From contig CAXXIN010000017.1 of NCBI GenBank assembly GCA_963665275.2, positions 96,001 through 160,000 of the forward strand: 64,000 nt of DNA. Reading direction: 5' to 3'. The translations under genes were made by a program, and so were the position numbers. Shown in pieces: positions 8,881 through 63,489 of this stretch (position 1 is the stretch's first letter; the number at the start of each line of letters is the position of its first letter). The notes under the pieces were generated by a model. That model was given only the letters and a program-made list of their open reading frames with translations, searched no databases and was not told the DNA's origin. The DNA is from Negativicutes bacterium (lineage in GTDB: Bacteria > Bacillota > Negativicutes > UBA1444).

Positions 8881-8892
8881 AAACAGTTACGA

Positions 8893-12615: not shown

Positions 12616-12636
12616 TTATTGTGGTCACCTTTCAGC

Positions 12637-13518: not shown

Positions 13519-13526
13519 ACTAGCTC

Positions 13527-31278: not shown

Positions 31279-31284
31279 AGGTGA

Positions 31285-45154: not shown

Positions 45155-46066
45155 GTGATTCAGTTGGAACTTCGTCAGCTACAATATTTCCAGTCAGTCG
45201 GTCGACTGCTTAGCATAACCAAGACGGCAGACAAGTTTAATATTGCTCAACCCTCTGTCAGCATTGCCATACAAAGTCTGGAAAAAGAAATGGGTGTCCA
45301 ACTTCTAGACCGTAGTCATCGCCGAATTGCCTTTACTGCGGAAGGTGATATTTTTTTGCAGAAAGTCGATGAAATTCTTGCGCTACTAACAGATGCCGTA
45401 CGCCAAATGACTGATTATAGGGCACTTGACCCAGGATACATTAGCCTGGGAATTACGCCGACAACCAGTGGCGTTTTATTCCCCAAAATTTTTGCTGATT
45501 TTCACACCCAATTCTCGCACATTAACCTTACCAGTGTTGAAGAAGGCTCGCTGGCAATTGTTAAGCTATTGAAGCAAGGTAAAGTGGATATCGGAATCAT
45601 TATAAATTCAGAATTCGCATCTGGATTAGAGATATTACCCTTAAAAACAGAGCAGATCGTACTTTGCCTACCACCCCGCCATCCGCTAGCTGCCAGCAAA
45701 AAAGCAACCTTTGATACTCTCAAAAGCTATCCCTTTCTTTTATTTAAAGAAGATACCTATTTGCGCCAAATAATCTTGCAAGAATGTGCTAAAAACCATA
45801 TCACTCCCAAGGTCGCTTTTTCTTCCAGCCAAATTGAAACGATTGTAAGTCTTGTACAGGAAGGAGCCGGCATCACTTTTCTGCTTGAGTCCACGGTCCG
45901 TAAATACGCAGACATTATGGGGCTTCCGTTAGCGGAACCAATATGGGTCCAGATGGGGTTAGCCTGGAATAAGGATAGATATTTATCGAAAGCGGCCAGA
46001 ACCTTTATCAACTTTGTTACAGAAAAACAATCGCCAGAATCCGAAATTGAATGCGGACCTGAATAG
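45155..46066 (+). CDS. LysR-family transcriptional regulator
   Basis: LRQLQYF..SIT..A....AQPSVS..I..LEKEMG..L.DR plus a substrate-binding domain. Confidence 0.95.
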   Translation: MIQLELRQLQYFQSVGRLLSITKTADKFNIAQPSVSIAIQSLEKEMGVQLLDRSHRRIAFTAEGDIFLQKVDEILALLTDAVRQMTDYRALDPGYISLGITPTTSGVLFPKIFADFHTQFSHINLTSVEEGSLAIVKLLKQGKVDIGIIINSEFASGLEILPLKTEQIVLCLPPRHPLAASKKATFDTLKSYPFLLFKEDTYLRQIILQECAKNHITPKVAFSSSQIETIVSLVQEGAGITFLLESTVRKYADIMGLPLAEPIWVQMGLAWNKDRYLSKAARTFINFVTEKQSPESEIECGPE

Positions 46067-46102
46067 AACAAAGACGCCCGTTTTCGGGGCGTCTTTGTTC
46101 TA
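46064..46102. terminator. Bidirectional terminator
   Basis: TAGAACAAAGACGCCC...GGGCGTCTTTGTTCTA. Confidence 0.8.
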
Positions 46103-46106
46103 TCCG

Positions 46107-46409
46107 CTATTCCAACACATTTCTCAAAACCAGCCGCTTAAAAAACAAAACAGTTTTCAGCTCGATTTCCCAAGCTGCCGGCTTCACTTCCTCAAGCGAG
46201 TGATGAAGATACAGGGTTATCTCGTCGGAAGCGGACACTTCATATTCTTGTCTATCTTTTTCCTCGGGCAATCCCAGTCGCACGGACGGGGTGGCTGTAA
46301 GCCGGGAGCCTCCTCAACCACCGGTCAGACAATAATAAACCCGGGCTGTGACAGAACCGCCCTTCGCCTGGATAAAGTTACGGGCTTGGAGCGTCATTTC
46401 CAGTTTCAT
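46107..46409 (-). CDS. Probable selenoprotein, HesB-like/'CC-Se motif' type (100 aa, UGA at codon 32)
   Basis: Absent from the ORF track. SD GGAGG and ATG 46409 give MKLEMTLQARNFIQAKGGSVTARVYYCLTGG-U-GGSRLTATPSVRLGLP...FFKRLVLRNVLE*. TGA at 46314-46316; the ORF fills the gap up to the terminator. Confidence 0.8.
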
Positions 46410-46460
46410 CAGGTTCTTTTCCTCCAATTGTGTCAGCAAACGAGCTTATTTCGCATCGCG

Positions 46461-46877
46461 CTATTTTGTGTTTTTACTCAAAACCTCGTCAAATTGCTGC
46501 GTCACTACCGCGACTACTTTCGCCACCATTGCCGCGTGCTCTGCCGTCAAATCCCTAGTTGATAAAGCCGGTCCTTCAGCCAGTTCGTCGCCAATGATAT
46601 CCGAAACAAACACCACGCTGTTAACCTTACCGCTGTACTTCTCCGTGGCCCGCTTGGCACAGGCCTTACTGCAGCCATCCACCGCGATAGTCGGATACTC
46701 CTGGGCGAACATCCGCTCTTCCTGCCCGCCGGCTATATAGAGAGGCAGGCAGATGGTCACGGTCTGATCGGGTCGCACCTCATCCAGCATTTTGCGGGTG
46801 GCCAGCCGAGAAATCGTGCCACCCAGGCAGTCTTCGCCGCTACAGGAAACCACGCCGATTTTTAATTCTTCCGCCAT
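46461..46877 (-). CDS. DGC-domain putative zinc-binding protein
   Basis: SCSG...TICL...VDGCSKAC. Confidence 0.85.
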   Translation of the reverse strand: MAEELKIGVVSCSGEDCLGGTISRLATRKMLDEVRPDQTVTICLPLYIAGGQEERMFAQEYPTIAVDGCSKACAKRATEKYSGKVNSVVFVSDIIGDELAEGPALSTRDLTAEHAAMVAKVVAVVTQQFDEVLSKNTK

Positions 46878-46881
46878 TTCT

Positions 46882-47301
46882 CTATCGTCCTTCGCTCTGA
46901 ATTTGCGCCACCTCAGCGCATAGTTTGGCCGCAATTTCATCCACGATGGCCCAGCCCTCTTCCGTCAGTTCGGTAGCGGTCCCGGGCTTGGCGCCTTTAT
47001 GCAGGCGCATGACATCCAGCACTTTGAACTTGGCCTTGATATCGCCGCCCATTTCTTCCGCGCTTTTTGCGGAGCACATGGCTGGACAGCCGTCAATGGT
47101 GATGCAGGGCTGGTCGACGATCTTCGCCGTAGCCTCGGCATCGCCGGTGACGATATAGGCCAGGCAGGTAGTATCGGCCTGTTCGGGGCAGAGATGCTGC
47201 ACTGTCTGCAGCACCGCTTCCCGGGCCATCAACCCGTACACCTTGCCCATGCCGCTGCAGGCCATGACTTTAACTTTACTTTTTGTTGGCATGATACTCA
47301 T
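46882..47301 (-). CDS. DGC-domain putative zinc-binding protein
   Basis: ACSG...TTCL...IDGCPAMC. Confidence 0.85.
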   Translation of the reverse strand: MSIMPTKSKVKVMACSGMGKVYGLMAREAVLQTVQHLCPEQADTTCLAYIVTGDAEATAKIVDQPCITIDGCPAMCSAKSAEEMGGDIKAKFKVLDVMRLHKGAKPGTATELTEEGWAIVDEIAAKLCAEVAQIQSEGR

Positions 47302-48142
47302 CCGCCTTTTTCTTCAGTACTTTCAGATAGCCCTCCGCATCAAGCAGAAATTCTTGTTCTTCCGCGAAATTCGTCAATTCGATTTCAGCAATCCAGCCTT
47401 GTTCATACGGATTCTGATTGATCAGTTCCGGCGCGTTCAGCACGGGGGTATTCACCGCCGTGATTTTGCCGCTGACCGGACTCACCAGTTCAAAGACCGC
47501 TTTGCCGGATTCGAGCGTTCCGGCTTCGTCGAATTGATCGATGGTCGCGCCTACCGACGGCGGTGTGACGAACATGATGTCCGACAAGCTTTGCTGCATG
47601 AAATCCGTAATGCCGATCCGGGCCCGGTTGCCGACCGGTTGCACCCAGCAATCGTTCTCCGTGAAATAAAAGCCTGTCGGCGGAACACGGAAAATGAACT
47701 TATCTTTCTTGTGGATGATATATTCCTCGGGTACGGGATAGAGCACGCCGGAATCGACGCTGGCATCCTCCGCTTCCGCCTTGACCAGTTCGGCGGCAAG
47801 CTCCGCGCCAAGGGCGAGTTCGGCCGCACCCAGCCGCAATGGCGTAACTGCCAGCGGCGCTCCGCGCTTTTGCGCTTCTTCCGTCACCGTCATTTTGCGG
47901 AAAATCTTCAACCCTTTTTCGCCCGCCAATTTGCTGGCGCAGCGCGTCGCACAGCCGTCAATCACCAATAACGGATTCTCTTTGGCGATTTTATCGTACC
48001 GGGCATCCGACACCCGGTAAAACACCGGGCAAATCAGTTCATTCTCCGTGTTCTCGCAGACGATCTGCGCGATCTCCCGGGCTACCTGACCCGCACATTT
48101 ATCCAGTCCGTTGCAAGGCAATACCGCAAATTTTTCACTCAC
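47276..48142 (-). CDS. DGC domain fused to a glycine-cleavage H-protein (lipoyl) domain
   Basis: N-terminus PCNG...ICP...IDGCATRC. C-terminus IGITDF.Q..L.DI.FV, ESGKA (lipoyl-Lys), SPVSG.I..VN and IN..PY..GWI. Confidence 0.9.
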   Translation of the reverse strand: MSEKFAVLPCNGLDKCAGQVAREIAQIVCENTENELICPVFYRVSDARYDKIAKENPLLVIDGCATRCASKLAGEKGLKIFRKMTVTEEAQKRGAPLAVTPLRLGAAELALGAELAAELVKAEAEDASVDSGVLYPVPEEYIIHKKDKFIFRVPPTGFYFTENDCWVQPVGNRARIGITDFMQQSLSDIMFVTPPSVGATIDQFDEAGTLESGKAVFELVSPVSGKITAVNTPVLNAPELINQNPYEQGWIAEIELTNFAEEQEFLLDAEGYLKVLKKKADEYHANKK

Positions 48143-48428
48143 CGCTCGCCACCCCGCTCCGTGTTTCCTTTATCTTCTTCGTCACTTCGACTTTATTGGG
48201 AAACTCCAGTGCGTCCAGTCCGCAGGTCTTACTGCAGGCCCGGCAGAACACAACGCAGTTGAGGGGATTTTCGACAATCAGCTTGATGGGGTCATCTTCC
48301 TGCTTCTTAAATACTTTGTGGGGACAAAAATCGAAGCACTCCATGCAGTAATTGCACTTTGTATAGTCAATGGTCGGTTTCCAGTCGATGGTATTGCGGG
48401 GTACCCCCATGAAAGTATCTTCGCTCAC
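48135..48428 (-). CDS. 2x[4Fe-4S] ferredoxin-family protein
   Basis: CNYCMEC...CP and CVVFCRAC...C. Confidence 0.88.
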   Translation of the reverse strand: MSEDTFMGVPRNTIDWKPTIDYTKCNYCMECFDFCPHKVFKKQEDDPIKLIVENPLNCVVFCRACSKTCGLDALEFPNKVEVTKKIKETRSGVASGE

Positions 48429-48808
48429 TGCTTAGCCTCCATTTCTTCCAATGCTTTGGAAACTTTTTCAAATGCCTGCTCATTGGTCATATCGCGGATA
48501 TCCAGCGCCACCAAGTCTTTGGTGACATCCAGCCCGGCCGCCTTGAAGGCATCCTTGAACATTTTGATCTGCATGTTTTTGGCGCAGGCCCCGATGACCA
48601 TCGGCCGGTCGGCTTTGAGCATATCCGCCAGGAAGCGGTCGCCGTCCTCTTCACACAGTTGCGGGTGTATGAACCCGTATTCCACCGGCAATTCCACCCG
48701 GACCTGATTGATGAAATCCCAGATATCCATGGCTTTAAAGCCGGGGCACTTGCCTGTGCACACGCACATAATAAAACCGGGTAGTTTTTTTTCTTCTTCG
48801 CCCATCAT
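48425..48808 (-). CDS. Stand-alone protein resembling the N-terminal Cys domain of HdrA
   Basis: CVC...C, LC...G, VIGAC and DIRD spacing, as in the HdrA N-terminal domain. Recognised by eye only. Confidence 0.65.
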   Translation of the reverse strand: MMGEEEKKLPGFIMCVCTGKCPGFKAMDIWDFINQVRVELPVEYGFIHPQLCEEDGDRFLADMLKADRPMVIGACAKNMQIKMFKDAFKAAGLDVTKDLVALDIRDMTNEQAFEKVSKALEEMEAKQ

Positions 48809-48839
48809 TGCATCTCCTCTTACGTAATTTTATATTTTC

Positions 48840-50237
48840 TTACCCTTTATGGATTGACCTGCCGAGCGCGTCGGCACAAGCCTCCATCACTGCTTCGCTC
48901 AGCGTGGGGTGCGGGTGGACCAGGTCGGCGAGTATGTCGGCCTTGAGCCCCAGCGAGACTGCCAGCGTCAATTCCGAAATCAGTTCCGTCGCCTGCGGAC
49001 CCAGGATCTGCGCGCCCAAAATCACATGGGATTCCTTATCCGTCACGACCTTTACCATTCCTTCCCGCTCGCCCATGCACTGAGCCCGGCCATTGGCACG
49101 AAAATCAAAGCGCCCGGTCTTCACTTCGCGGCCCTGCGCGGTCGCCGTTTTTTCATCCATACCGACCGAAGCCAGTTCCGGCTGAAGGTACACACAGGAA
49201 GGAATCGCGTTATAATTCAGGAAAAGGTTCGCGCCCAAGGCATTTTCTATTGCCACCCGGCCTTCCACATAGGCTTTGTGCGCGAGCAGCTTGCCGCCCG
49301 TCACATCACCGGCCGCGTAAATGCCCGGAACTGTCGTTTCCATTTGCTCGTTCACAATCAGCGCTCCCTGCGCGCCGGTAGCTGCGCCCAGTGCAATTAA
49401 TTCGCGGGGCACCGCCGGTTTGCGGCCCACTGCCAGTAGCACACGATCGGCCTCGATCAGGGTTTCCTTCCCCTGGGTCTGAAACAGGACTTTTGCTCCC
49501 GCTCCCTCAGCAACGATTGCGGAAACGGTGCTGGCAATATAAACCTTCACGCCCTGACGTTTCAAAACTTTGAGCACTTCACCGGCAATCTCAGCATCTT
49601 CCTGCGGCAAGATCTGATCCGCCATTTCGATGACGGACACCTTCGTTCCCAGTCCGTTGAACATTTGGGCAAACTCCAGCCCAATAGCGCCGCCGCCAAT
49701 AATAGTCAAACGCTGGGGCACTTCCTCCAGCGACAACATCTCATCACTGGTCAGCACTACCGGCAAATCCAGACCGGGAATATTGGGCCGCACTGGCCCG
49801 GAACCTGTAGCGACCAGGATTTTTTTACAATGAATGACCACTTGGCCTTCCGTTGTTTCAACATGCATCTGTTGGGTATTAATAATAAGGCCCTGGCCTT
49901 TTATGATAGTAATGGCATCCTTGTGCAGCAAATGTTCCACACCCAGGCGCAGACTTTTGACGACCCGGCCTTTGCGGCTATGCCCTGCCGGCCAGTCGAT
50001 CACAGGTGGCGGCCCCACCACGCCGAACTCCTGTCCCTTGCGGGCAAGCGCCGCCAGCTCCACCGTCCGCAGCAATGCCTTGGTAGGAATACAGCCACGA
50101 TTCAGGCACACCCCGCCCAACAAGTCCTGTTCGACGATCGCTGTGCGAGCGCCTAACTGAGCAGCCCGCACGGCAGCCACATATCCGGCAGGTCCGCCGC
50201 CAAGAATGGCAACTTCGACATCAACCTCTCGTTGCAT
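48840..50237 (-). CDS. lpdA: Dihydrolipoyl dehydrogenase
   Basis: GGGPAGY.AA.RAAQLG, GGVCLNRGCIPTK, GGGAIGLE, LAHKA..EG and HPHPTLSE. Confidence 0.95.
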   Translation of the reverse strand: MQREVDVEVAILGGGPAGYVAAVRAAQLGARTAIVEQDLLGGVCLNRGCIPTKALLRTVELAALARKGQEFGVVGPPPVIDWPAGHSRKGRVVKSLRLGVEHLLHKDAITIIKGQGLIINTQQMHVETTEGQVVIHCKKILVATGSGPVRPNIPGLDLPVVLTSDEMLSLEEVPQRLTIIGGGAIGLEFAQMFNGLGTKVSVIEMADQILPQEDAEIAGEVLKVLKRQGVKVYIASTVSAIVAEGAGAKVLFQTQGKETLIEADRVLLAVGRKPAVPRELIALGAATGAQGALIVNEQMETTVPGIYAAGDVTGGKLLAHKAYVEGRVAIENALGANLFLNYNAIPSCVYLQPELASVGMDEKTATAQGREVKTGRFDFRANGRAQCMGEREGMVKVVTDKESHVILGAQILGPQATELISELTLAVSLGLKADILADLVHPHPTLSEAVMEACADALGRSIHKG

Positions 50238-50273
50238 ATTCAATCCACCTCTATTTTTTACACTTGACGATTA

Positions 50274-50338
50274 TGTTGATATATAATTTTATATTTATAT
50301 GTTAACACAATGATAGTACAAAAATTTTTGCCTGTCAA
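50274..50338 (-). promoter_or_regulatory. Promoter of the lpdA operon with downstream inverted-repeat operator
   Basis: TTGACA (50338-50333), 17 bp, TATCAT (50315-50310). Inverted repeat TGTTGATATATAA-N8-TTATATGTTAACA at 50274-50307. Confidence 0.7.
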
Positions 50339-50459
50339 TTTTCTTTTCTTATTCTCGACTCCCCAAATTGAAGAGAAAATAATCCCTGCTGCAATCCGGA
50401 GCTGCAAAGCATAAGGAGTTGTCTGCTGTATTCCTTCTCCGTAAGCGTACCGCAATATA

Positions 50460-50495
50460 AAAACACCTTGCGGCAAAAGTTGTGCAAGGTGTTTT
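50460..50495 (-). terminator. Terminator after the MFS gene
   Basis: AAAACACCTTGC...GCAAGGTGTTTT. Confidence 0.7.
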
Positions 50496-50590
50496 GGCTA
50501 TGTGCAGCTATCGTCCGGCATTGGAGCCCTCCGGACCCAGCACACATATTCTCAAGACCGCAGGCCATGAGCATCGCATTTTAAAAACTT

Positions 50591-51778
50591 TCACTCATTC
50601 TTCCGAGCACTGTTTTGGAAAATATAAAAGCACCCCAGCGCGATGGTTTGAGCGACGACAATAAAGCCGAATACAAAAGTCAGGTTAAAGTCGTACAAAT
50701 ACCCCACCGCCGTACTGCCGAGGAACCATGCAACACCATAAATCGTGTTAAAGATCCCGTAAGCCCTTCCCCTGGCCGAGATAGCCGTCATGTCTGCAAT
50801 CGCAGCCCGCATGATCGTCTCGTGAATCCCCATAACCGCACCCCACAAAACTACCGCCGTTATCGCCAGCGCATAGCTCTCGGAGAATCCGAAAAAAGGA
50901 ATGGGAAGGCTGAGGAAAGGAATTGCGAGTAAAACTCTCATGCCTTTCTTATCGTACAATTTTCCCACAAACAGCGCCACCCCTGCGTCCACTCCCATAG
51001 AGAGGGCATACAGTGTCGGAATAAGAGCTTCAGGCAAGACGTCTTTCACCTGCAAATGATACGAGATCAGTTGAAAGCTGGCAAAGCCCAACACGCAGAA
51101 AAATGAAAAAACAGAGTATCGCCAAAAACTTCGCGATAACGGTTGCGGCCCCAATGCAGAGTCTTCTTTGTGCAGGGTAACGCGCTCTTCCAGCTGGGCT
51201 GGATCAGGATACTTCAAACTGGTAAAGATCACGACCGCCACCGTCAAGAGAGCAGGCACCCACATCATTTGAAATCCAAGTGCATAGCCGCCATGCAAGG
51301 CTAAGCCTGCGGTAAACAACAATGGGCCGATAAATGCGCCGATTTGGTCCATCGCTTCGTGCAAGCCGAACCCGAACCCGGTCCCCACTTGCTTCGTCGC
51401 ATGGGACAACAAGGCATCCTTGGCCGGGCTGCGGATCGCCTTGCCGATTCGTTCCAGCATAATAAACACGACGGCTATCTTCCAATCGCCCGCTATCGCC
51501 AACAGCGGCACGGAAACCAGCAGACCATATCCCAGAATAGTTACCGGCCAGTAAAGCTTCGTCCGATCGACAAAATATCCCGACACCAGCCGCAGCGCAT
51601 AGCCCAAAAACTCGCCGATACCGGTCACCAAACCCACCGTAGCTGCACTCGCACCCAAAAAACCGAGATAAGGCCCGTAGATACTGCGAGCGCCCTCGTA
51701 GGTAATGTCTCCGAATGCACTGACCAAGCCAAAAAGCAAGATAAACTGCATGGCTTGCTTCTTTTTGTCCGTTTTCAT
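50591..51778 (-). CDS. MFS transporter
   Basis: 12-TM pattern; YEGARS, ER.GKAIRSP, GKLYDKKG and RGRAYG. Confidence 0.9.
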   Translation of the reverse strand: MKTDKKKQAMQFILLFGLVSAFGDITYEGARSIYGPYLGFLGASAATVGLVTGIGEFLGYALRLVSGYFVDRTKLYWPVTILGYGLLVSVPLLAIAGDWKIAVVFIMLERIGKAIRSPAKDALLSHATKQVGTGFGFGLHEAMDQIGAFIGPLLFTAGLALHGGYALGFQMMWVPALLTVAVVIFTSLKYPDPAQLEERVTLHKEDSALGPQPLSRSFWRYSVFSFFCVLGFASFQLISYHLQVKDVLPEALIPTLYALSMGVDAGVALFVGKLYDKKGMRVLLAIPFLSLPIPFFGFSESYALAITAVVLWGAVMGIHETIMRAAIADMTAISARGRAYGIFNTIYGVAWFLGSTAVGYLYDFNLTFVFGFIVVAQTIALGCFYIFQNSARKNE

Positions 51779-52102: not shown

Positions 52103-53548
52103 CTATGCCACGTTTCGCTTGCTAGCTCTCCACAGTCCGATAAAAAGGGTCGCAAGAAAAACAACCAGATAAAGCATAATCACAGTAAGGCTGGCGCCAT
52201 CGATCCACATGCCGTAGAGCAGTCCAGAAAGAGCGCTGAAAATTGCGACGCATACCACATAGGTCGCGGTTTTGGCACGACCGATAATGGCCGCGGTAAT
52301 GAGCATGCTTTGCAGACTCAGCTCGGGATCCGCCATGAGGTAGGCAAGCAGCGGCCCCCTATGCATACCCAGATCGAGGAACATCTTGGCGATGGGGACT
52401 TCCACCAGGGTCGGAAAATACATGAATATCCCGAACAATACGCCAGCCAGGTTCCCAGTCAGAGAGTTGTCGCCAGCAATGGCTTCAATCCATTCCGGTC
52501 TGATTATCTGCCTGATGACCCCCACGACAAAAACGCCGACAATCAACAGCGGGAAAATCTGTTTGACGAATTTCCAAGACTCCCAGAGAAAGCTGCAAGT
52601 CTCATCTTCCGTAAACTTTGTTACGAGCAACCCGTAAATTGCAGCCAACGACAAGGCCACGCCTATGAACTTGCCATTGACAAGAATGTCGAGGCCGCCG
52701 GCATGCGGCGTCATGCCCACCGCCGCACACAGAAAGGTTATCGCCACTAGCGTTAAAGAAATCACCGACCAGCGGTTCAACCCGTCAAAAACATTTTCTA
52801 GACCTTTCCAGGCCGTCCAACCGATAAGCGCCAACAGGACAATCAGGATAGCACCTTGCGCAGAAACTCCCTCTTCCCCTTTTGCCGGATCAAAGGGTAC
52901 CAGTCGGAGCAAGGATTCCTGCACTGTATCCATGCCGGCAACCGGCAACGTGATCGTTGCATACGTGTTGGTGAGCAGACCGATTTTCAGCGTACCTGAA
53001 AGGAGCAATGCAACCAGCAGGGCGATCAGGGCGAAAGCCGAGCGCTTCATTTCCTGATTGCCGGCAAACAGCGCATCTGCGGCTGCATCATGGGCCGTAT
53101 CTTCTTTGCTGAAAACCAGCGCCATGATCATCCCGATACCGATCCCGAATACCAGGGAAAGAAAAAATCTGGCAAAAGCCAGATCAGCGCCGATCAATCC
53201 GCCGGTGTAAATTAACGCGAGAATATTGGCGGCTGGCGCAAAGAACAAAAATGTGATCGCAGGGCCGATGCCCGCGCCTTTCTTATATATTCCGGCAAAC
53301 AGGGGGACAATCGTACAGGAACACACGGCAAGCAATGAGCCTGATGCAGCTGCGGCAGGATAGGAAATATATTTCGGCCGGTTCCGCCCCAGAAACCGGG
53401 TTACCGATTCTTTGGGGATGAGCGCGGTCATTGCGCCGGCAATAAAGAATGCCGGCAACAAGCACAATAGTACGTGCGCCGCAAGATAGGCCGCCAAATT
53501 TCCCAAACCGCTGTTGAGGAGGCTTACGAAGTTATATGTTGTTTCCAT
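52103..53548 (-). CDS. ArsP/DUF318-family permease
   Basis: HVLLCLLPAFFIAG, AVCSCTIVP, MYFPTLVEVP and PELSL. Confidence 0.88.
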   Translation of the reverse strand: METTYNFVSLLNSGLGNLAAYLAAHVLLCLLPAFFIAGAMTALIPKESVTRFLGRNRPKYISYPAAAASGSLLAVCSCTIVPLFAGIYKKGAGIGPAITFLFFAPAANILALIYTGGLIGADLAFARFFLSLVFGIGIGMIMALVFSKEDTAHDAAADALFAGNQEMKRSAFALIALLVALLLSGTLKIGLLTNTYATITLPVAGMDTVQESLLRLVPFDPAKGEEGVSAQGAILIVLLALIGWTAWKGLENVFDGLNRWSVISLTLVAITFLCAAVGMTPHAGGLDILVNGKFIGVALSLAAIYGLLVTKFTEDETCSFLWESWKFVKQIFPLLIVGVFVVGVIRQIIRPEWIEAIAGDNSLTGNLAGVLFGIFMYFPTLVEVPIAKMFLDLGMHRGPLLAYLMADPELSLQSMLITAAIIGRAKTATYVVCVAIFSALSGLLYGMWIDGASLTVIMLYLVVFLATLFIGLWRASKRNVA

Positions 53549-53900: not shown

Positions 53901-54923
53901 TTATTTCGCAGACTTGGCTATAGCTTCCAACTCAGCCTTGTATTCAACGCCATATTTTTCAACGACACTCTTGACCGCTGCTTTCCACGGCGCAACGTCT
54001 TTTACTTCCGTTACGATTACTCCGCCCTGGATCAGTTTTGCCAAGGCATCTTTCTCAAATTTATCCCAGGCCTCTTTCTGGAACTTCACGGAATCCTGGG
54101 CTGCCTGCTGGATGATCTTCCGATCTTCATTCGACAGTTTGTCCCAGGTTACTTTGCTCACCATCAGCACTTCAGGCACACGTTGATGACCATCGAGGAT
54201 ATAGTTTTTTACTGCCTGATGATGGCTCGCTGTCAGATAGCTCGGGGGGTTATTTTCCGCTCCGTCGATAACGCCTGTCTGAAGAGCGCTGAACACTTCG
54301 CCGTAAGGCATGGGGGTTGCGCTGGCGTCAAAGGCTTTCATCAGTTCAATATTGATGGCGTTTTGAATAACACGGATTTTAAGACCTTTTAGGTCCTCCG
54401 GACTTTTAACCGGTTTCTTGGTGTAGAAGCTACGGGAACCGGAAGCATAATAAGCCAGTCCCATCATCCTTGATTTTTCCAGGTTGGTCAACATACCTTT
54501 GCCATAATCGCTGTCAAGGAATCGCCAAACATGATCATTGTCATTGAAGACATATGGCAGGGAAAAAACGCCGAACTGTTTGTTAAATTCAGCCAAAGTT
54601 CCGGAGCTGATCCGCGTGAACTCGATGGACCCTAGTTGAACCTGCTGAATGACCGAATTTTCGTCGCCGAGCGAACCTGAATCAAACACTTTGACCTGAA
54701 TCCGGCCCTGCGTTCTTTCATTCAAAAGTTCGGCGAATTTCTTGTCGCCCAGGGTAGTGGGATAATCCGCCGGATGAGCTTCAGCCAGCCGAAAATTTAA
54801 TTTGGGTTTTTGTGGTGCATTCCCAGCCGCCGGAGTCGCCTCTTTTTTGCCGCAACCAGTGATAAGAACTGTCAGTGCCAGAATTGCCGTGAAACAAACG
54901 ACCAGCCACTTTTGATTTTTCAT
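53901..54923 (-). CDS. dctP: TRAP transporter substrate-binding protein (lipoprotein)
   Basis: Lipobox LITGC, DLKGLKIR and GEVFSALQTGVIDGAEN. Confidence 0.93.
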   Translation of the reverse strand: MKNQKWLVVCFTAILALTVLITGCGKKEATPAAGNAPQKPKLNFRLAEAHPADYPTTLGDKKFAELLNERTQGRIQVKVFDSGSLGDENSVIQQVQLGSIEFTRISSGTLAEFNKQFGVFSLPYVFNDNDHVWRFLDSDYGKGMLTNLEKSRMMGLAYYASGSRSFYTKKPVKSPEDLKGLKIRVIQNAINIELMKAFDASATPMPYGEVFSALQTGVIDGAENNPPSYLTASHHQAVKNYILDGHQRVPEVLMVSKVTWDKLSNEDRKIIQQAAQDSVKFQKEAWDKFEKDALAKLIQGGVIVTEVKDVAPWKAAVKSVVEKYGVEYKAELEAIAKSAK

Positions 54924-55037
54924 TTCATTTCCCCCTTACTCCTTTTCCGTAATCGCAGTATGAAATCGCAACCCTAATCCAATATATTTTTTCTTGTCGC
55001 CTCCCCCACTCGCAAATCCATCCACAAACTGATTTTG

Positions 55038-56330
55038 TTAAGGAAACATAGAGGGCAACCAAAGCACCGTTGCAGGCACGTAGGTTATCAATGCCAACAC
55101 TACAAGCATGGCGTAGAAAAACGGCATCATGGCTTTTGTCCCCTGCGAAATCGAAATATTACCAATCGCGCAGCCGATAAACAGCACTGTACCAACCGGT
55201 GGGGTAAGCAGTCCCATACCGGCGTTAAAAATAAGCACCAGTCCAAAATGAATAGGGTCCATTCCAATCGCTAGGCATACTGGCAGCAAGACTGGCGTGA
55301 GAATCAGGATCATCGGCGCCATATCCATCGGCCCGCCCAGGATCAGGAGCAAGACATTGATGAGGAGCAGGATCACGTACGGATTGTTGGAAACACCCAA
55401 AAACCATTCCGTGATCATCTCCGGCACGCTCAGAAAGGCCATGACATAGCCAAATGCGGCCGAAGCCGAAATCAGGAAATATACCATCATAACCGTACGT
55501 AGCGTTCGTTTGAGCACATTCCACATTCGGGACAGAGGTACTTCCCGGTATACACCGAAGGCGAGAATAAATGAGTACACCACTGCCAGAGCCCCCGACT
55601 CGGTAGCAGTAAATGTGCCGGAAATAATGCCGCCCAAAATAATGAAGGCCGGCGAGATGGAGAGTAATCCATGGAAAATAATACCGGGGCGCTGCGAACT
55701 TGGCACCGGTTCACTGGCTGGATATCCACGTTTGATAGCCATCAGGTACGCAACTGTCATTAGGGAGCCCAGCAACAAAAAACCCGGAACAATTCCGGCC
55801 AGAAACAGGCTCTTGATGGACAGGCCGCCAGCCACAATGGAGTACAGCACCAGATTATGACTGGGCGGAACAACAACGCCCTGGATGGCTGACGAGATTG
55901 TCAGCCCCACCGCATAATCAGCGTCGTAGCCTTTTTTCACCATCGCCGGGATCATGACCGAACCGACCGATGCGGCATCCGCGCCTGCGGAACCGGAAAT
56001 ATTGCCGAAAAACATACAGGCAATACAATTAACCAGTGCCAGACCGCCCCTGATCCGACCCACAATGAGACTCGCTAGGTCAACCAATCGCTGTGCCAGG
56101 CCGCCTTCACCCATAATTTGTCCGGTCAGAATAAAAAATGGAATCGCCAATAGAGAAAAAGTGCGAACACCATTGATCATTTGCTGACCGATGGTCGGTA
56201 GCGGCACATCAAGATAAACCATTGTCAGCAGGGAGGATGCAAACAGAGCCTGCGCTACCGGCAGCCGCAACAACGTAAATACCAGAAAACTGATCCCTAA
56301 TAACCATACCGCTATGTCATTTGCTTCCAT
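55038..56330 (-). CDS. dctM: TRAP transporter large permease
   Basis: LLAIPFFIL.G, ISGS..AD, PPS and TPPVG. Confidence 0.93.
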   Translation of the reverse strand: MEANDIAVWLLGISFLVFTLLRLPVAQALFASSLLTMVYLDVPLPTIGQQMINGVRTFSLLAIPFFILTGQIMGEGGLAQRLVDLASLIVGRIRGGLALVNCIACMFFGNISGSAGADAASVGSVMIPAMVKKGYDADYAVGLTISSAIQGVVVPPSHNLVLYSIVAGGLSIKSLFLAGIVPGFLLLGSLMTVAYLMAIKRGYPASEPVPSSQRPGIIFHGLLSISPAFIILGGIISGTFTATESGALAVVYSFILAFGVYREVPLSRMWNVLKRTLRTVMMVYFLISASAAFGYVMAFLSVPEMITEWFLGVSNNPYVILLLINVLLLILGGPMDMAPMILILTPVLLPVCLAIGMDPIHFGLVLIFNAGMGLLTPPVGTVLFIGCAIGNISISQGTKAMMPFFYAMLVVLALITYVPATVLWLPSMFP

Positions 56331-56850
56331 CGCTTTTTTCCTCCAACTCCGCGCCTACTTCAATATCCGCTCCCTTATGGCGTCTCGTGTCAATCCCCAT
56401 CATCTGCAGAATGGAGTATGCGCAGACCATAACCCCGCTGACCGGCATCACCAGATAGACGACACTATTGGGCAACTTGGTGGCCGGCAATGTGGATTCA
56501 AACATGAGCACTGTAAATTCCCAGCCGTAAACAACAAAATAGAGCCCATAAATCAGGCCCATGATATCAATCCATTTATTAATCCAGCCATTTACACGGG
56601 GAGAAAAATGTTCAGTCAAAGCATCCACGCCCATATGCACGCCTTCGCGGAAACCGATGGCAATACTCATGAAAGCAAACCATACCAAACAAAGCAGAAT
56701 ACCTTCTTCCGACCAAAAAAAGACAAAATTAAATATTTTTCGCGTCACAACTTGCAGTGTCATGACCAAAATAACACCCAGCAACGCAAATATTGCACAA
56801 GTCTCAAACAGCGTATCCACTTTTAGAGCCAGCTTCTTTAATTCGTCCAA
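56317..56850 (-). CDS. dctQ: TRAP transporter small permease
   Basis: QV.TR, WSEE and H..VD; 4 TM. Confidence 0.92.
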   Translation of the reverse strand: MDELKKLALKVDTLFETCAIFALLGVILVMTLQVVTRKIFNFVFFWSEEGILLCLVWFAFMSIAIGFREGVHMGVDALTEHFSPRVNGWINKWIDIMGLIYGLYFVVYGWEFTVLMFESTLPATKLPNSVVYLVMPVSGVMVCAYSILQMMGIDTRRHKGADIEVGAELEEKSDGSK

Positions 56851-56895
56851 TGCATCTGCCTCCCTTTCTGCAACCGCAAATCAGAATATCAACCT

Positions 56896-57741
56896 TTATA
56901 CCCCTGAATATGCCATGAAACCGCCATCAACCGGTACTACAATGCCGGTCACAAATCCGGCCGCCTGCTCGTCCAGCAACCACAGTAACGTCCCCAGTAG
57001 ATCTTCCGGTTTGCCGAATCGGCGCATAGGCGTATGAGCAATGATTTTGTCAGCTCTGGCAGTTAGCGAACCATCTGGATTTGTCAGCAAAGCTCGGTTT
57101 TGTTCAGTGAGGAAGAAACCAGGCGCAATAGCATTGACTCTTATCCCCGCTTCTGCCATATGAACTGCCAACCACTGCGTAAAATTGTCGATTGCCGCTT
57201 TGGCTGCGCTATACGCAGGAACTTTGGTCATGGGGCAGGGCGCACTCATCGACGAAATATTGATAATTACCGCACCTGTTCGCCCCAGCATCTGGCGAGC
57301 AAAAATCTGACTCGGAATCAACGAACCAATAAAATTGAGGCGTAAAACATAGTCGAAACCGTCAGTTGTCATGTCGAAGAAGGTTCTGAGTTCGCCTGCC
57401 TTGCATTCCAGATCAGACAACTGAAAGATTTCTTTCGTAGTCGTGCCACTGGGGTCGTTGCCTCCTGCGCCGTTAATCAAAATATCACAGGGTCCCAGTT
57501 CTTGTTCGACGACAGCCGCAGCGCGACTGACGCTGTCGCGGTCAAGCACATCGCAGGCGACAGCAATAGCGCATCCACCATTTTGTACAATATCCGCGGC
57601 CACGATCTTTGCTTTCTCCTCACCCCGGTTCAAAACAGCGACCTTTGCACCCTGACGACCGAGTTCCCGCGCCATTGCCCCGCAGAGTATTCCGCCACCG
57701 CCTGTAACGACGGCAACCTTGTTTTTCAAAGGACTATTCAC
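56896..57741 (-). CDS. uxuB: SDR-family D-mannonate oxidoreductase (fructuronate reductase)
   Basis: [18 protein letters not shown] and [10 protein letters not shown]; GTGA overlap with uxuA. Confidence 0.85.
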
Positions 57742-58817
57742 TTTTCCCCTCTTCTCCTTTCGATCGCGTCCCAAAGTCCGGTCAGATAAACTGCCCCTAG
57801 TGCACGGTCATACAATCCGTACCCTGGTCTGCCTTTTTCTCCCCATATCATGCGACCATGATCCGGCCGAATCGGCCCTGTAAAATCAATATCATGGAAC
57901 GCTTTCATGACTTCATACATATCAATCGACGCAGAAGCATCCTTATGTGCGGTTTCGTGAAAAACACCCTGTTCGTCAATTTTAATATTACGGACATGCC
58001 CGCAATTGATTCGCCCCATTTTGCCAAAATAACGGATGATTTCCGGCATATCATTTGCCCTATTTGCGCCAAGGGAACCGGTGCAAATCGTCAACCCATT
58101 ATTAGGACTGTCCACCAGACGAACAATGCGTTCCAAGTTTTCCTTGGAGGTTACGATCCGTGGCAGGCCAAACACCGGCCAGGGGGGATCATCCGGGTGA
58201 ATCGCCATCTTGATTTCGCATTCCTCCGCAACAGGAATAATCGCCCGCAAAAAATAACCGAGATTTTCAAACAGATCTTCTGCATCGATATTTCTGTACA
58301 AAGCGAATACTCTCTTAAGTTCGCCCATGCGTTCTTTTTCCCAGCCCGGCAGTTCAAATCCATTAGACCCTTCATACATTGATTCCATTAGTTTTTCCGG
58401 GGTCAATGCACGTATTACATTTTCGTTATACGACATCGTATTGGAGCCGTCCACCAGGTTCTTGGCCAGCTCGGTCCGCAGCCAGTCAAAAACCGGCATA
58501 AAATTGTAGCAAATGACTTTTGCGCCGGCAGTGCCCAAATTTCGGAGTGTTTCGCAGTAGTTTTCGATGTAACGGTCGCGTGTCGGCAGTCCGAGCTTGA
58601 TGTCTTCATGCACATTCACGCTTTCAATGGTATGGAACAGCATCCCCTGTTCCTCGATCATATTTTTCAGCGCCAAAATTTTATCCAGCGGCCATACTGC
58701 TCCAACCGGAACATCAAATAACGCACTCACGATACCTTTCATGCCGGGAATTTGGCGAATATACTCCAGCGAAATGGGATCATCTTTTTCCCCGAACCAA
58801 CGAAACGACATGATCAA
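57738..58817 (-). CDS. uxuA: Mannonate dehydratase
   Basis: M.FRWFG, ESVNVHE.IK, CYNFMP, HPDDPP, RPDHG and PGYGLYDR. Confidence 0.96.
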
Positions 58818-59035
58818 TAGAGTCAACCTCCCAAAACTCAAGCACATGCAAGTTATATTATCGAACAGAAAACCTCGTCTTTTTTTGTATACTACCATAC
58901 TACCATACCGTCGTCAATCAATTTTCTCACACTAATCTGATTTATTTATGAAAATAAAAAAAATATTGACACCGCTATTTGAGTATAGTAGTGTCAATAA
59001 TGAGTTTGTGTTTATCAGGAATTCGGGGAGGATGT

Positions 59036-59743
59036 ATGGACCTTCAGATGTTGAAGCGGTCACCGCACGAATCGACACGCAACTACGTTTATCAGATAAT
59101 GAAACAAAACATCATGACGCTTCAATTACCGCCGGGAACTGCCCTGTCCGAGCAGGAAATCGCCACAGCGCTTTCCGTGAGCCGAACTCCGGTTCGGGAA
59201 GCTTTTATCCGTTTATCCCAGGAAAATCTTCTGGACATTATCGCGCAGCGTGGGACCTATGTATCGTTGATTGACCTGGATAGTGTCCGGGAGTGCAAGT
59301 TTTTACGTGAAACCCTGGAAAAAGCCGTCATACGTCTGGCATGCGCAAATTTTCCCAATGACAAATTATTTGATCTCCAGTCCTATCTCAGTGTTCAGGA
59401 GCTGTGCCTGCAGGAAAACAACTATCTGAAGTTTTATGAACTGGATGAAAAATTGCACCGTACGATCTTTGACGGCTGCCAAAAAGCCCGCATCTGGGAA
59501 CTCATCCAACAACTGGGCAGTCACTACAACCGCGTACGCTTGCTCAATCTGGCCCGGGGGCATGAGCTGGGCCAATTGCTTGAGCATCACAAAAACATTG
59601 TTCTTGCCATTCAAACCCGCGATGCCGCTTTGGGTAGCCGTACCATCAATCAACATTTAAACAAGGTACGCGTTGACATCGTGGATTTGCTGCAGGATTA
59701 TGGCTCCTATTTCAAACAATCCGATTCTGATGGGGTTAATTAA
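59036..59743 (+). CDS. GntR-family (FCD) regulator, divergent from uxuA
   Basis: [26 protein letters not shown]-type direct repeats at ~58888-58908 in the intergenic region. Confidence 0.92.
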
Positions 59744-60800
59744 TTTTTAGCGTACAATTAAACTTCGCAAAAGAATTGCGAAAATGCAGCGCCACATTCA
59801 CCAGCGCGATCATCACCGGCACCTCGATCAACGGCCCGATGACTGCGGCAAAAGCCTGCCCCGAATTGATGCCAAAGATTGCAACTGCTACCGCAATCGC
59901 CAATTCAAAATTGTTGCTTGCCGCAGTAAATGACAGGGTCGTCGTCTGTTCATAGTTCACACCCATGCGCCAACTCATGAAAAAAGAAACCGCAAACATG
60001 ATCGTAAAGTAGATGATCAACGGAATCGCAATCCGCACCACGTCCATCGGCAGTTTCACAATATAGCTGCCTTTCAATGAAAACATTACCATGATCGTAA
60101 ACAGCAGCGAAATCAACGCCAGAGGACTGATCTTGGGAATGAACGTATTTTCGTACCATTCGCGCCCTTTGGCCGGCAACAGGAATCTGCGGGTAAGAAA
60201 TCCAGCCAAAAAAGGAATCCCCAGATAGATCGCCACACTCGTGGCCACATCCTTCATTGAGACTTGGATACTCATCCCCTTGAAGCCGATCCAGCCTGGC
60301 AATACGGTAATGAAAAAATAGGCGAAAACCGAGTACAACAACAATTGAAAGATCGAATTCAAAGCCACCAAAGCCGCTGCATATTCATTGTCGCCGTCCG
60401 CAAGTGAATTCCATATGATGACCATCGCGATACAACGAGCCAGTCCGATGAGGATCAAGCCCACCATGTATTCCGGCATGTCAGCGAGAAAAATGATCGC
60501 CAGTGTGAACATCAGCACTGGGCCGATAATCCAGTTCTGCACTAGAGACAGCGTCATGACCTTGCGGTTGCTGAATACTTTTCCCAGTTCTTCATACTTC
60601 ACTTTGGCCAGTGGCGGATACATCATCACGATCAGGCCAATGGCGATCGGAAGCGAAGTAGTACCTACCGAAAACTTGTCCAGCCACGCCGGTATGCCAG
60701 GAAATAAGTACCCCCCACCGACTCCAATGGCCATGGCCACAAAAATCCACAGGGTCAGAAACCGGTCAAGAAATGACAGTCCTTTTTTCGTTTGCGCCAT
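59736..60800 (-). CDS. acr3: Acr3-family arsenite efflux transporter
   Basis: [38 protein letters not shown] and GPLIEVP. Confidence 0.96.
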
Positions 60801-60905
60801 AAAAATCACTCCCCTTCCATGCTGAATAGTAGGATTACAGTCGCCGCCCAATTCACGCTACCCTTTCGATCACGCGGCATAATAAGGATCCACTTCAGTA
60901 TTCTT

Positions 60906-60940
60906 ATATTCAATTTTACTCATGTATCAACAATTGTCAA
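60906..60940 (-). promoter_or_regulatory. acr3 promoter with probable ArsR operator
   Basis: Minus-strand TTGACA at 60940-60935 and TAAAAT. Imperfect inverted repeat ATATTCAA-N6-TCATGTAT at 60906-60927. Confidence 0.55.
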
Positions 60941-61038
60941 TCGATAGAATTGTTGTGTTTCTATTAATGTGGTGACAGAATGTGACAAAAAGGGAGAGGG
61001 ACGAAGAAATCGTCGAGTCAACGAGCGCAATATTCGAC

Positions 61039-61079
61039 CAGTATAAAGGGCATTGCCGTCGGCAATGTCCTTTATACTG
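61039..61079. terminator. Terminator hairpin
   Basis: CAGTATAAAGGGCATTGCC-gtc-GGCAATGTCCTTTATACTG. Confidence 0.7.
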
Positions 61080-61084
61080 TAACT

Positions 61085-61614
61085 CTATACCTGCTGGTGC
61101 TTCAGATAGATCGCCTGCTTTTCCGCCTCGGAATGCATCCGATCTGTAACATAGGCAATCGATATGATTCCTATCAAACTGCAAACCCACCGTGTGGTCG
61201 AAAAAGGAACGCCGAGGAACTGGATTTCAAACAGGAACATCGGAATTTTCAGGGTCGCCCAGGCTCCGATAAAAAGAATCACATCGAAGAGGCTGGTCCC
61301 TTTTTTCAACATTACGGCCACTACCGGAAAAGCGGCATATAACGGTCCGGCATTTGCCACACCCAACAGTACCGCCAGCGCCATTCCCTTTACTCCTGAT
61401 CCCGGCCCAGATGGCTGACCACCTTTTCCCGAGGCACCCATGTGTCCAGCAATCCCAGGATGATAAAGACAAGGGGAATGAAGCTGAGCATCTGCAGAAA
61501 ACTGTCCGATGTCTGGATGACAATATTCTTGCCCAGACTCTGGTCCCATATATAAAGCGCGATATCTACCAAAAACAGCAACAGCACCCACTTGTAACGG
61601 CTCCATTTTGCCAC
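61085..61614 (-). pseudogene. Frameshifted permease; paralog of 3232-3762
   Basis: RYKWVLL..GLLDTWVPRE in one frame and SGVKG..GPLYAAFP..KIPMFLFE in another. Confidence 0.88.
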
Positions 61615-61615
61615 T

Positions 61616-61897
61616 TTACCCGGCCACCTTTCCCAGTACAAACGCTACGGCGAAAGAAAATATCAGACTCAAGCCGTTTCGCCACAACATCACTTTTCGG
61701 CTGAGAAGCGGTAACGGTTGCTGGAGAAACCATTGCCATTATCATGCCGACCAACAGCAGAATGGCAGCAAAAGCCGGCAGAATATTATCAAAAGCTTTC
61801 CAGGCTTTTTTCAGAGACTGTTTTGTTTTCTGTTTATCTTTCCTGTATGACCAAATGATTCCACCTGCAGCCAGTCCATAAAAATCACAATGTCCAA
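61616..61897 (-). pseudogene. Internally deleted and frameshifted permease; paralog of 2751-3230
   Basis: KDKQKTKQSLKKAWK..VSPATVT is joined directly to FSRKVMLWRNGLS; about 200 bp missing. Confidence 0.85.
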
Positions 61898-61924
61898 AGA
61901 ACTCACTCCAAATCGCTTGCCGCT

Positions 61925-63476: not shown

Positions 63477-63489
63477 TGAGGTTAATCAC

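Follow-up and report, generated by a model that had tools for sequence, protein, structure and literature searches.

A DGC–H-protein fusion in a six-gene operon of a Negativicutes bacterium and its possible place in arsenic handling

The DNA analyzed here, hereafter the window, is a stretch of 64,000 nucleotides from a Negativicutes bacterium (assembly GCA_963665275.2, contig CAXXIN010000017.1, positions 96,001 to 160,000 of the forward strand), and coordinates given without a locus or contig label are counted from its first letter. The gene of interest, at 47276-48142 on the minus strand, encodes a protein in which a DGC domain with its Cys site is fused to an H-protein (GcvH) domain, a lipoyl carrier; it is one of six genes, here called the cassette, which form a widespread and apparently undescribed operon. 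The fusion is real and ancient, and the cassette as a whole is interpreted, with a probability somewhat above even, as a lipoyl-dithiol and Fe-S relay that acts on arsenic species.

The operon and its central protein

The six genes of the cassette are co-directional and encode, in order, a dihydrolipoyl dehydrogenase (Lpd), a protein of 127 amino acids (aa), a ferredoxin, the fusion and two further DGC proteins, DGC-B and DGC-C; their positions, along with those of the promoter elements and of the parts of the fusion, are as follows.

50310-50338, minus strand: sigma-70-type promoter before the Lpd gene, TTGACA-17 nt-TATCAT, agreeing with the consensus at 11 of 12 positions and ranking first within 45900-50700
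50270-50311, minus strand: operator-like inverted repeat just 3' of the -10 hexamer, two 17-nt arms, 82% complementary and 8 nt apart
48840-50243, minus strand: Lpd, 467 aa as listed; translation may instead begin at an ATG two codons further on
48425-48808, minus strand: 127-aa protein resembling the N-terminal domain of HdrA by fold and profile match; the most conserved gene of the cassette
48135-48428, minus strand: 97-aa ferredoxin-like protein with matches to Fer4, Fer4_10 and Fer4_7 and the motifs CxxCxxCxxxCP and CxxxCxxCxxxC, of the two [4Fe-4S] type
47276-48142, minus strand: DGC-GcvH fusion protein, 288 aa plus stop, GTG start, fourth of the six genes
47858-48127, minus strand: DGC domain of the fusion (PF08859), residues 6-95, with C10, C38, C64 and C68
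47723-47857, minus strand: Ala-rich linker, residues 96-140, modeled by AlphaFold2 as a long helix (106-128) followed by a stretch of lower confidence
47279-47722, minus strand: H-protein (lipoyl carrier) domain with an N-terminal beta-hairpin extension, from profile, alignment, model and fold matches
47501-47503, minus strand: AAA codon of Lys214, the predicted lipoyl-lysine, aligned to the lipoyl Lys of solved H-proteins
46882-47301, minus strand: DGC-B, 139 aa, PF08859 with E 2.5e-12
46461-46940, minus strand: DGC-C, 159 aa as listed, PF08859 with E 8.5e-18; the true start is probably later

Successive genes are separated by 31, -4, -8, -26 and -59 nt, the ferredoxin gene overlapping that of the 127-aa protein by 4 nt and that of the fusion by 8 nt; the cassette is read as a translationally coupled operon, with the fusion as its central subunit. 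Regarding its control, the -35 and -10 hexamers are kept in the related loci L002, L003, L005 and L025 of the survey described below, and an AT-rich dyad occupies the same promoter position in five related loci (L002-L005 and L025). The LysR gene at 45155-46066 was considered as a regulator of the cassette and discarded, as it is convergent with the cassette and not divergent from it. None of 23 listed RNA runs contained the stretch.

Lpd exceeded the cut-off of its NCBIfam model (TIGR01350, 506.2 bits versus 408.8) and had both Pyr_redox_2 and Pyr_redox_dim; it gave the only Pyr_redox match of the cassette, in which no CCG (HdrB) domain was found. Likewise, none of the six proteins matched AhpC, AhpD/CMD or OsmC in Pfam.

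As for the fusion, PF08859 covered residues 6-95 (E 1.4e-17, 64.1 bits versus a cut-off of 27) and PF01597 (GCV_H) residues 159-278, that is, positions 2-121 of the 122 in the profile (E 8.3e-33). The AlphaFold2 model, built on 35 fusion sequences, had a mean predicted local distance difference test (pLDDT) of 93.2 and a predicted template modeling score (pTM) of 0.61, values from which it follows that both domains are confident and their mutual orientation is unsure. The linker contains 10 Ala in 45 residues (22%, against 11% over the whole protein), and its length differs among the homologues in the 35-sequence alignment. The first-pass annotation, made from the letters alone, had read this gene as a DGC domain, an Ala-rich linker and a full H-protein fold, with an ESGKA motif whose Lys codon is at 47501-47503; this description held throughout, the motif corresponding to residues 211-215 and the codon being exact.

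The fold of the C-terminal domain is that of a complete H-protein. Foldseek matched it to 1onl_A with E 3.3e-14, a template modeling (TM) score (target) of 0.93 and a root-mean-square deviation (rmsd) of 1.2 Å, the TM scores for H-proteins being 0.93-0.95, while VIA-align superimposed 131 of 131 residues on 1dxm_A (Z 22.6, rmsd 1.0 Å). In the phmmer alignment to solved H-proteins, ESGKA faced ESVKT and ESVKA (Thermus, human), and residues 164-166 (DCW) faced the usual HEW, as had been proposed for this gene.

Conserved residues, fold relatives and spread

A word-indexed search with the fusion returned 1177 proteins at E ≤ 1e-3, and the best 120 of them (57-97% identity) all had both Pfam domains; an exhaustive search of 50%-identity representatives gave 34 matches at E ≤ 1e-30, with full-length fusions down to 26% identity among the 150 representative matches listed, and at least 24 clusters at 50% identity contain full-length fusions. 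Residue conservation was read from two sets: an alignment of 35 sequences, joining the window protein with 4 of the 120 best homologues, 24 full-length fusions from the 150 representatives and 6 of the 25 genome loci, and a set of 145 fusions, mostly close relatives, made of the 120 best homologues, the 24 representatives and the window protein. The residues of most interest were kept as follows.

K214: 145 of 145 fusions, and 35 of 35 diverse ones
E211: 145 of 145
C10: 145 of 145
C64: 145 of 145
C68: 144 of 145
C38: 132 of 145; missing from about 14 of the 35 diverse fusions (read by eye)
C165: 110 of 145; present in 11 of the 35 diverse fusions (manual count)
C16: 98 of 145
C29: 35 of 145

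The positions invariant in the 35-sequence alignment were C10, G18, G63, C64, C68, K148, W166, G177, D180, Q183, D188, E211, K214, N231, N242 and W250. The lipoyl-lysine is therefore conserved across homologues, and the fusion, found at 25 loci in several phyla, is not unique to this assembly.

On these data, the C-terminal domain is an H-protein by fold and lysine that nevertheless fails several tests for membership in glycine cleavage. It shares with GcvH proteins (PF01597; 1onl, 1dxm, 3a7l) the E-S-x-K-A hairpin of the lipoyl-Lys and most of the generic conserved residues, including D180, Q183, D188, N231, N242 and W250, but it differs from them in the DGC domain attached through a helical linker, in the extra N-terminal hairpin, where K148 is invariant and F151 and P154 nearly so, and in the conserved replacement of HEW by N163-D164-x-W166, by which His becomes Asp164 and Glu is lost; D164 is kept in 143 of the 145 fusions, whereas position 165 can be C, V, S, T, A, F, I or G. 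In pea H-protein, the Glu of HEW shelters the aminomethyl-lipoyl arm. The Cys added by DCW is not a conserved feature in the wider set, C165 being frequent but dispensable.

That the fusion is an ordinary H-protein of glycine cleavage, or of the reductive glycine pathway, with an extra domain is barely credible. It would agree with the GcvH subfamily model NF002270, narrowly exceeded with 118.1 bits against a cut-off of 117, and with the name GcvH given to homologues in some public sources. However, the equivalog model TIGR00527 gave 105.3 bits where 115.85 are required; GCV_T and GDC-P domains were absent both from the 22 window open reading frames (ORFs) scanned (35590-58898) and from the 280 flank ORFs of the 25 cassette loci, so that in the loci examined the fusion is always beside DGC and Fe-S genes and never beside gcvT or gcvP; and the genome has a canonical 130-aa GcvH on contig C4. 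These observations, with the loss of HEW, argue against a role in glycine cleavage, and the constant operon partners are unrelated to glycine metabolism.

Two further GcvH-like genes lie on contig C15, and three other Lpd paralogues, 41-45% identical to that of the cassette, are found elsewhere in the genome; with the C4 protein, they indicate that the carrier and the reductase of the cassette are extra copies and not the metabolic ones. The 150 representative matches listed also include stand-alone H-proteins, about 145-165 aa long, that align to the fusion over residues ~140-282 only, extra hairpin included; by sequence, they are probably split forms of the same cassette.

Regarding the DGC domain, its D-G-C motif is D62-G63-C64. 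The first-pass annotation had described a four-Cys domain: C10, C38, C64 and C68 are indeed the conserved set of the family, but the domain holds six of the seven Cys of the fusion (10, 16, 29, 38, 64, 68 and 165), and only three are invariant in fusions. By the alignments, the site consists of three invariant Cys (C10, C64, C68) plus a frequent C38. When 23 DGC domains from every type of paralogue were compared, C10, G12, G18, G63, C64 and C68 were invariant, and C38 and D62 were present in at least 90%.

The AlphaFold2 model of this domain is a three-layer alpha/beta, flavodoxin-like structure (strands 6-9, 58-62 and 80-85; helices 16-31, 39-55 and 68-75), in which strands one and three lead, where the sheet has its C-terminal edge, into C10, C64 and C68. 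Among solved structures, VIA-align ranked first an uncharacterized Wolinella protein, 3pu6_A (Z 9.7, rmsd 3.1 Å, 115 residues), followed by generic flavodoxin-like folds with Z of about 8 or less; the fold class of the modeled domain is clear. A profile of the 23 domains gave no solved relative by sequence (best E 0.7), and the ESM Atlas search with the DGC domain matched nothing. A low-molecular-weight phosphatase or ArsC-like fold was considered and dismissed, its Z values of 6.6-6.8 not being above those of other flavodoxin-like folds.

As(III) prefers trigonal S3 sites, and Cys triads are the rule for its ligands in ArsR, ArsD and ArsA; exactly three invariant Cys fit such a site. Stand-alone DGC genes also occur in operons of the arsR-arsP type, a trait that links the cassette to ars operons: one such gene adjoins arsR in the window (63072-63831), and a preprint (10.1101/2022.10.17.512643) describes a PF08859 gene of unknown function in an arsR-arsP-arsE operon of Pseudodesulfovibrio mercurii. 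Taken together, the three invariant Cys and the stand-alone genes beside arsR and arsP point weakly to As binding or thiol chemistry rather than to a tetrahedral site for Zn or for a cluster.

The DGC domain may alternatively be a structural or regulatory Zn domain that anchors or regulates the H-protein within some lipoate-dependent enzyme. Homologues are called "putative zinc-binding protein" in public annotation and four Cys are a common Zn site, but this explanation is very unlikely: the operon has retained three different DGC paralogues from a time before the phyla separated, its fusions can do without the fourth Cys, it lacks a partner enzyme that would use an H-protein, and the stand-alone genes adjoin arsR and arsP.

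As for the 127-aa protein, it had no match in Pfam or NCBIfam, and a profile made from it matched residues 7-93 of HdrA (E 6.2e-4) with four Cys aligned. Its model (pLDDT 81.9) gave at best E 4e-3 against HdrA by Foldseek alone; the wide VIA-align search listed only generic alpha/beta folds with Z ≤ 7.5, HdrA being absent from that list, while a second look against HdrA residues 2-141 gave Z 10.7-11.8 for 7 of 7 HdrA entries (next fold 8.9), with 117-119 of the 127 residues aligned. ESM Atlas returned only unnamed or "HdrA-like" clusters. From profile and model, the protein is read as a putative free-standing copy of the cluster-binding N-terminal domain of HdrA, which, according to a structure paper of 2017, reportedly holds a [4Fe-4S] cluster.

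Compared with the N-terminal domain of methanogen HdrA (5odc, 7bkb, 8rvy), it has the same fold and the four aligned Cys, but it stands alone, without the FAD and ferredoxin domains, and has a fifth invariant Cys, C21, besides C15, C17, C52 and C75. It is also ~80% identical across phyla, whereas HdrA is only 17-22% identical to it. Its homologues number 1142, the best 120 having 77-98% identity and including proteins of cultured clostridia, Acetobacterium and Pelosinus.

The main rival of the arsenic relay is a pure electron-transfer complex, in which each DGC domain, like the HdrA-like protein, would bind an Fe-S cluster through its Cys and ferredoxin-level electrons would pass to the lipoyl disulfide and on to Lpd and NAD+, or in reverse; arsenic would then be the regulatory context only, or the stress that creates the need. 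Several traits speak for it: the flavodoxin-like alpha/beta fold of the DGC domain recurs in the 127-aa protein, both having Cys behind strands one and three, and 3pu6_A appears in the fold lists of both (Z 9.7 and Z 6.7, respectively); the operon encodes a 2x[4Fe-4S] ferredoxin beside a protein whose four Cys align with those of the HdrA domain; and the core is kept without an adjacent Lpd in five loci. Homology between the DGC domain and the HdrA-like protein was nonetheless discarded, as their hhalign probability of 5.6% is not significant; for a cluster site, the absence of C38 from about 14 of the 35 diverse fusions is unusual; and public sources label the DGC family "putative zinc-binding". 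Moreover, we know of no system that moves Fe-S electrons to a lipoyl group in such a way, and this explanation is held to be unlikely.

The spread of the cassette was followed in 25 fusion loci, one genome per species being scanned, which belong, by their record titles, to Negativicutes, several clostridial families, Symbiobacteriaceae, Limisphaerales, Acidobacteriota and Bathyarchaeia; among anaerobes in culture, Desulfitobacterium hafniense, Clostridium ljungdahlii and Lucifera butyrica carry it, and Fusibacter sp. 3D3 is a further cultured carrier. In tblastn searches with the window proteins, the genes for the 127-aa protein and the ferredoxin adjoined the fusion in 25 of 25 loci, DGC-B and DGC-C were present in 24 (the remaining locus stops at a contig edge), and Lpd was adjacent in 18, two others ending at contig edges and five being without it. 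Judged by these matches, the set appears conserved in all 25 loci wherever the contigs allow, with Lpd adjacent in 18.

In a maximum-likelihood tree of 72 DGC domains, the A (fusion) and C groups formed single branches (support 100/99 and 100/100, respectively), each spanning several phyla, while B was unresolved; separate multi-phylum clades imply that the DGC triplet is old and that its members are not interchangeable. In the same tree, an Acidobacteriota copy stood beside a Symbiobacteriaceae copy, and Verrucomicrobia-type copies were nested among those of Bacillota, from which it follows that the module moves horizontally. When the window's phylum was sampled evenly (401 genomes), 12 genomes had a match at E ≤ 1e-30, ten of these of full length including that of the window's genome; they are scattered over 8 of 278 genera, the kind of patchy distribution that an accessory module should show. 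Mobile-element genes occur beside the cassette at L012:754-3265, L015:775-2261 and L022:3620-4942 (plasmid Mob_Pre and Rep_OBD, IS200/IS605 transposases and a Mutator-family transposase); these neighbors are consistent with horizontal spread.

Arsenic and metal genes around the cassette

A Pfam scan of every flank ORF of 85 aa or more, 280 in total over the 25 loci, gave the following recurrent neighbors.

ArsR-type regulator: flanks of 19 of 25 loci
LplA-type lipoate ligase: 11 of 25
ArsP_1 permease: 9 of 25
ArsA, ArsD or ACR3-like SBF permease: 8 of 25
Thioredoxin and DsbD_TM pair: 6 of 25
Thioredoxin_3: 4 of 25
Radical SAM-SPASM protein: 3 of 25
Thioredoxin-MerB fusion: 2 of 25

In other genomes, the cassette is strongly linked to ArsR and ars genes: a C[VA]C motif, which we take to be the metalloid-sensing site, is present in 24 of the 25 flank ArsR ORFs, and the chance of meeting an ArsR in a random 17-kb span is roughly 5%, estimated from 12 HTH_5 genes in the 3.97-Mb genome of the window. 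The first-pass annotation had regarded the fusion as the strongest functional clue for the DGC family; the six-gene operon and this arsenic context in relatives, both of which it had missed, are stronger ones.

Some of the neighbors suit another explanation, by which the cassette would be a general module against soft-metal, organometal or disulfide stress whose thiols buffer or repair the damage done by Hg, Sb, Cd, organomercurials or oxidants. Thioredoxin-MerB (alkylmercury lyase) fusions occur in Verrucomicrobia-type loci a few kb from the cassette and by RND/OEP efflux genes (L017:9734-11026 and L019:13376-14683), which hints at an organometal link; the pairs of thioredoxin and DsbD_TM and the Thioredoxin_3 proteins fit as well, and so do AhpC, desulfoferrodoxin and CDF transporters, which flank single loci, together with the CDF transporter beside the DGC-ArsR pair in the window. 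In addition, the lipoyl relays already known serve peroxidases. On the other hand, ArsA, ArsD or ACR3-like proteins are the commonest specific neighbors, with ArsP_1 in nine loci, and the conserved core has no peroxidase gene; a general stress module is accordingly rather improbable next to a relay devoted to arsenic.

Other features recur in the flanks: DUF5714 is found next to the ligase of the cassette, as a radical SAM fusion at L014:6209-8335 and alone in Bathyarchaeia (L023:6200-6877), and DUF2703 recurs in L003, L020 and L022.

In the window, the genes related to arsenic or metals and the transporters near the cassette are the following.

50591-51778, minus strand: MFS transporter between the ArsP_1 permease and the cassette, with a hairpin and T-run after the gene (read by eye)
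52103-53548, minus strand: ArsP_1-family permease, PF03773 with E 2.2e-70, 1.9 kb upstream of the cassette
59736-60851, minus strand: ACR3 arsenite efflux transporter, TIGR00832 with 465.7 bits versus 282.8, 9.5 kb from the cassette
63072-63476, plus strand: a fourth, stand-alone DGC protein directly 5' of arsR, PF08859 with E 1.6e-26
63490-63831, plus strand: ArsR/SmtB regulator with a CVC motif, NF033788 and HTH_5, 13 kb from the cassette

The last three belong to an island (59736-63831) that comprises ACR3, a CDF transporter beside the DGC-ArsR pair, the stand-alone DGC and ArsR. Between this island and the cassette lies a hexuronate-type cluster (53901-59743) with genes for TRAP DctPQM, a short-chain dehydrogenase, the mannonate dehydratase UxuA and a GntR-like regulator. 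Within the island, between ACR3 and CDF, two ORFs (173 and 83 aa; 61085-61641, minus strand) overlap in different frames and look membrane-like by eye; NCBIfam matched neither of them, and Pfam did not match the 173-aa ORF. They may be a diverged or frameshifted permease, split ArsP_1 halves occurring in a similar setting elsewhere.

Regarding a shared ArsR operator, the 9-mer AACATATAA occurs three times in the window against 0.53 expected, a count reached by 2 of 100 shuffles; it was ruled out as evidence of co-regulation, one copy lying within the coding start of ArsP and the surrounding dyads being mismatched. A dyad of the form ATGCAA...TTGCAT is found, within the window, only at the DGC-arsR promoter. 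Overall, arsenic linkage is looser in the window than in relatives, and the cassette has its own promoter; this and the absence of an adjacent ArsR set it apart from ars operons, with which it shares its neighborhood in relatives, including the CxC-motif ArsR regulators.

A lipoyl relay and its known counterparts

The relay that we infer would start with the lipoylation of Lys214 by a ligase whose gene lies in another part of the genome. The lipoyl arm would be kept as a dithiol by Lpd, drawing on NADH, and/or by the two Fe-S proteins, drawing on electrons at the ferredoxin level; such an arm spans roughly 14 Å and, on its flexible helical linker, would then service the three-to-four-Cys sites atop three flavodoxin-like DGC modules, either by dithiol/disulfide exchange or by handing on bound As(III). 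The result would be a thiol-based processing of arsenic, by reduction and/or capture, with hand-over to exporters of the ArsP or ACR3 type, and the metabolic lipoyl enzymes, the classic target of arsenite, would be spared. The lipoylation itself, the direction in which electrons or arsenic would travel, the Cys ligands of the DGC sites and arsenic as the substrate in this particular genome are all conjectural parts of the scheme.

A bolder version can be considered, in which the cassette is an arsenic-transforming enzyme complex of a new kind, found in anaerobes: the lipoyl dithiol would chelate an arsenical and carry it among the three DGC sites, while the HdrA-like protein and the ferredoxin supply low-potential electrons. 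Such a complex could reduce pentavalent methylated or aromatic arsenicals to exportable trivalent forms, or reductively cleave carbon-arsenic (or carbon-mercury) bonds, and lipoic acid, the classic victim of arsenite, would become a catalytic tool; to our knowledge, there is no known anaerobic enzyme for such chemistry, and this version is decidedly doubtful.

Several observations weigh against a relay that acts on arsenic. In the window, no ArsR adjoins the cassette, the nearest being at 63490, 13 kb away, and no copy of the cassette promoter's dyad was found at that of DGC-arsR; the arsR located after the cassette in relatives lacks a close orthologue in this genome (29-36% identity at best), and the closest relative, L001 (96% identity), has no ars gene in its downstream flank of 7.4 kb. 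Among the 25 loci, six lack an ArsR, five of them having short or truncated flanks, which is not the case of L018. ArsR/SmtB regulators with a CxC motif sense other metals too, and this breadth, with the two thioredoxin-MerB loci, means that the substrate could be another soft metal or an organometal. As for the mechanism, simple chelation leaves the role of the two Fe-S proteins unexplained; the five loci that keep the cassette without an adjacent Lpd suggest that NADH is not the only electron source; the pTM of 0.61 lends no support to a fixed contact between the DGC and H-protein domains; and we know of no DGC protein for which arsenic chemistry has been shown.

Regarding lipoylation, the annotation had stated that no lipoate ligase is in the window and that the modification would have to come from the rest of the genome, and both statements proved correct: PF03099 and PF21948 matches occur genome-wide only on contigs C3, C8, C15, C16 and C18, with none on the window's C17, and six LplA/LipB-type genes lie outside the window, none on its contig. 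The ligase on C18, which sits among housekeeping genes, shares 61% identity with the ligase adjoining the cassette in a related Negativicutes genome. On C8, at 31207-31578, PF03099 matched with 83 bits in a 347-aa frame that had no match to the LplA/LipB catalytic-domain model; by its profile matches, it is probably a biotin ligase rather than a lipoate ligase.

Besides GcvH and the N-terminal domain of HdrA, the closest parallels to the cassette come from three kinds of systems. The sulfur-oxidation heterodisulfide-reductase-like complex, sHdr, works with GcvH-like lipoate-binding proteins (LbpA) and their own ligase. The cassette likewise places a GcvH-like lipoyl carrier alongside Hdr-related Fe-S proteins, outside glycine metabolism, and an LplA-type ligase is adjacent in 11 of the 25 loci, with none in the window. 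In contrast to sHdr, however, it has no HdrB/CCG, HdrC or full-length FAD-containing HdrA, only the 127-aa copy of the N-terminal domain, and no DsrE or TusA; three DGC modules and Lpd take their place, in a context of arsenic rather than sulfur oxidation.

The second kind is that of the lipoyl thiol relays for peroxidases, such as Lpd-SucB-AhpD-AhpC in mycobacteria and Lpd-H-protein-OsmC/Ohr, in which electrons pass from NADH to Lpd, to a protein-bound lipoyl group and to a Cys-based acceptor protein. The operon has its own Lpd and lipoyl carrier in the same manner, but its acceptors would be DGC domains instead of AhpD, AhpC, OsmC or Ohr, and two Fe-S proteins are added. Finally, there are ars operons that include thiol accessories around ArsR, ArsD-ArsA, ACR3 or ArsB and ArsP, such as the thioredoxin-like ArsE and the thioredoxin-coupled ArsC; among the ars genes described, we know of none that makes use of lipoic acid, an Lpd or Fe-S proteins of the HdrA type. 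Full-text literature searches, whose coverage ended short of subscription journals and supplements, found no description of the fusion or of the cassette. On balance, the cassette is best classed with the protein-bound-lipoyl thiol relays, with a real chance of being something more distinct.

Lipoic acid serves a handful of enzymes of central metabolism, a few peroxidase relays and sulfur oxidation, and it is the textbook target of arsenite. A lipoyl carrier with its reductase, Fe-S proteins and three DGC copies in arsenic islands would, if the relay is real, represent a new role for this cofactor and the first function for the DGC family (PF08859), and it could bear on the fate of arsenic, inorganic and organic, among anaerobes of soil, sediment, wastewater and guts. 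The fusion and the 127-aa protein each have more than 1000 homologues, and the culturable carriers make the question testable.

As a last observation on lipoyl proteins in this genome, the two GcvH-like proteins of contig C15 (138 and 139 aa) belong to a cluster within C15:36000-50000 (~820-13990 of that segment), together with two LplA-type ligases (300 and 382 aa), three radical SAM proteins, a FAD_binding_4 oxidase, a CCG/Fer4_8 protein and a FAD monooxygenase-like protein; it adjoins genes for 2-oxoacid dehydrogenase E2 and E1-beta, and is similar to the alternative sets of lipoate-assembly genes that have been described together with LbpA proteins.

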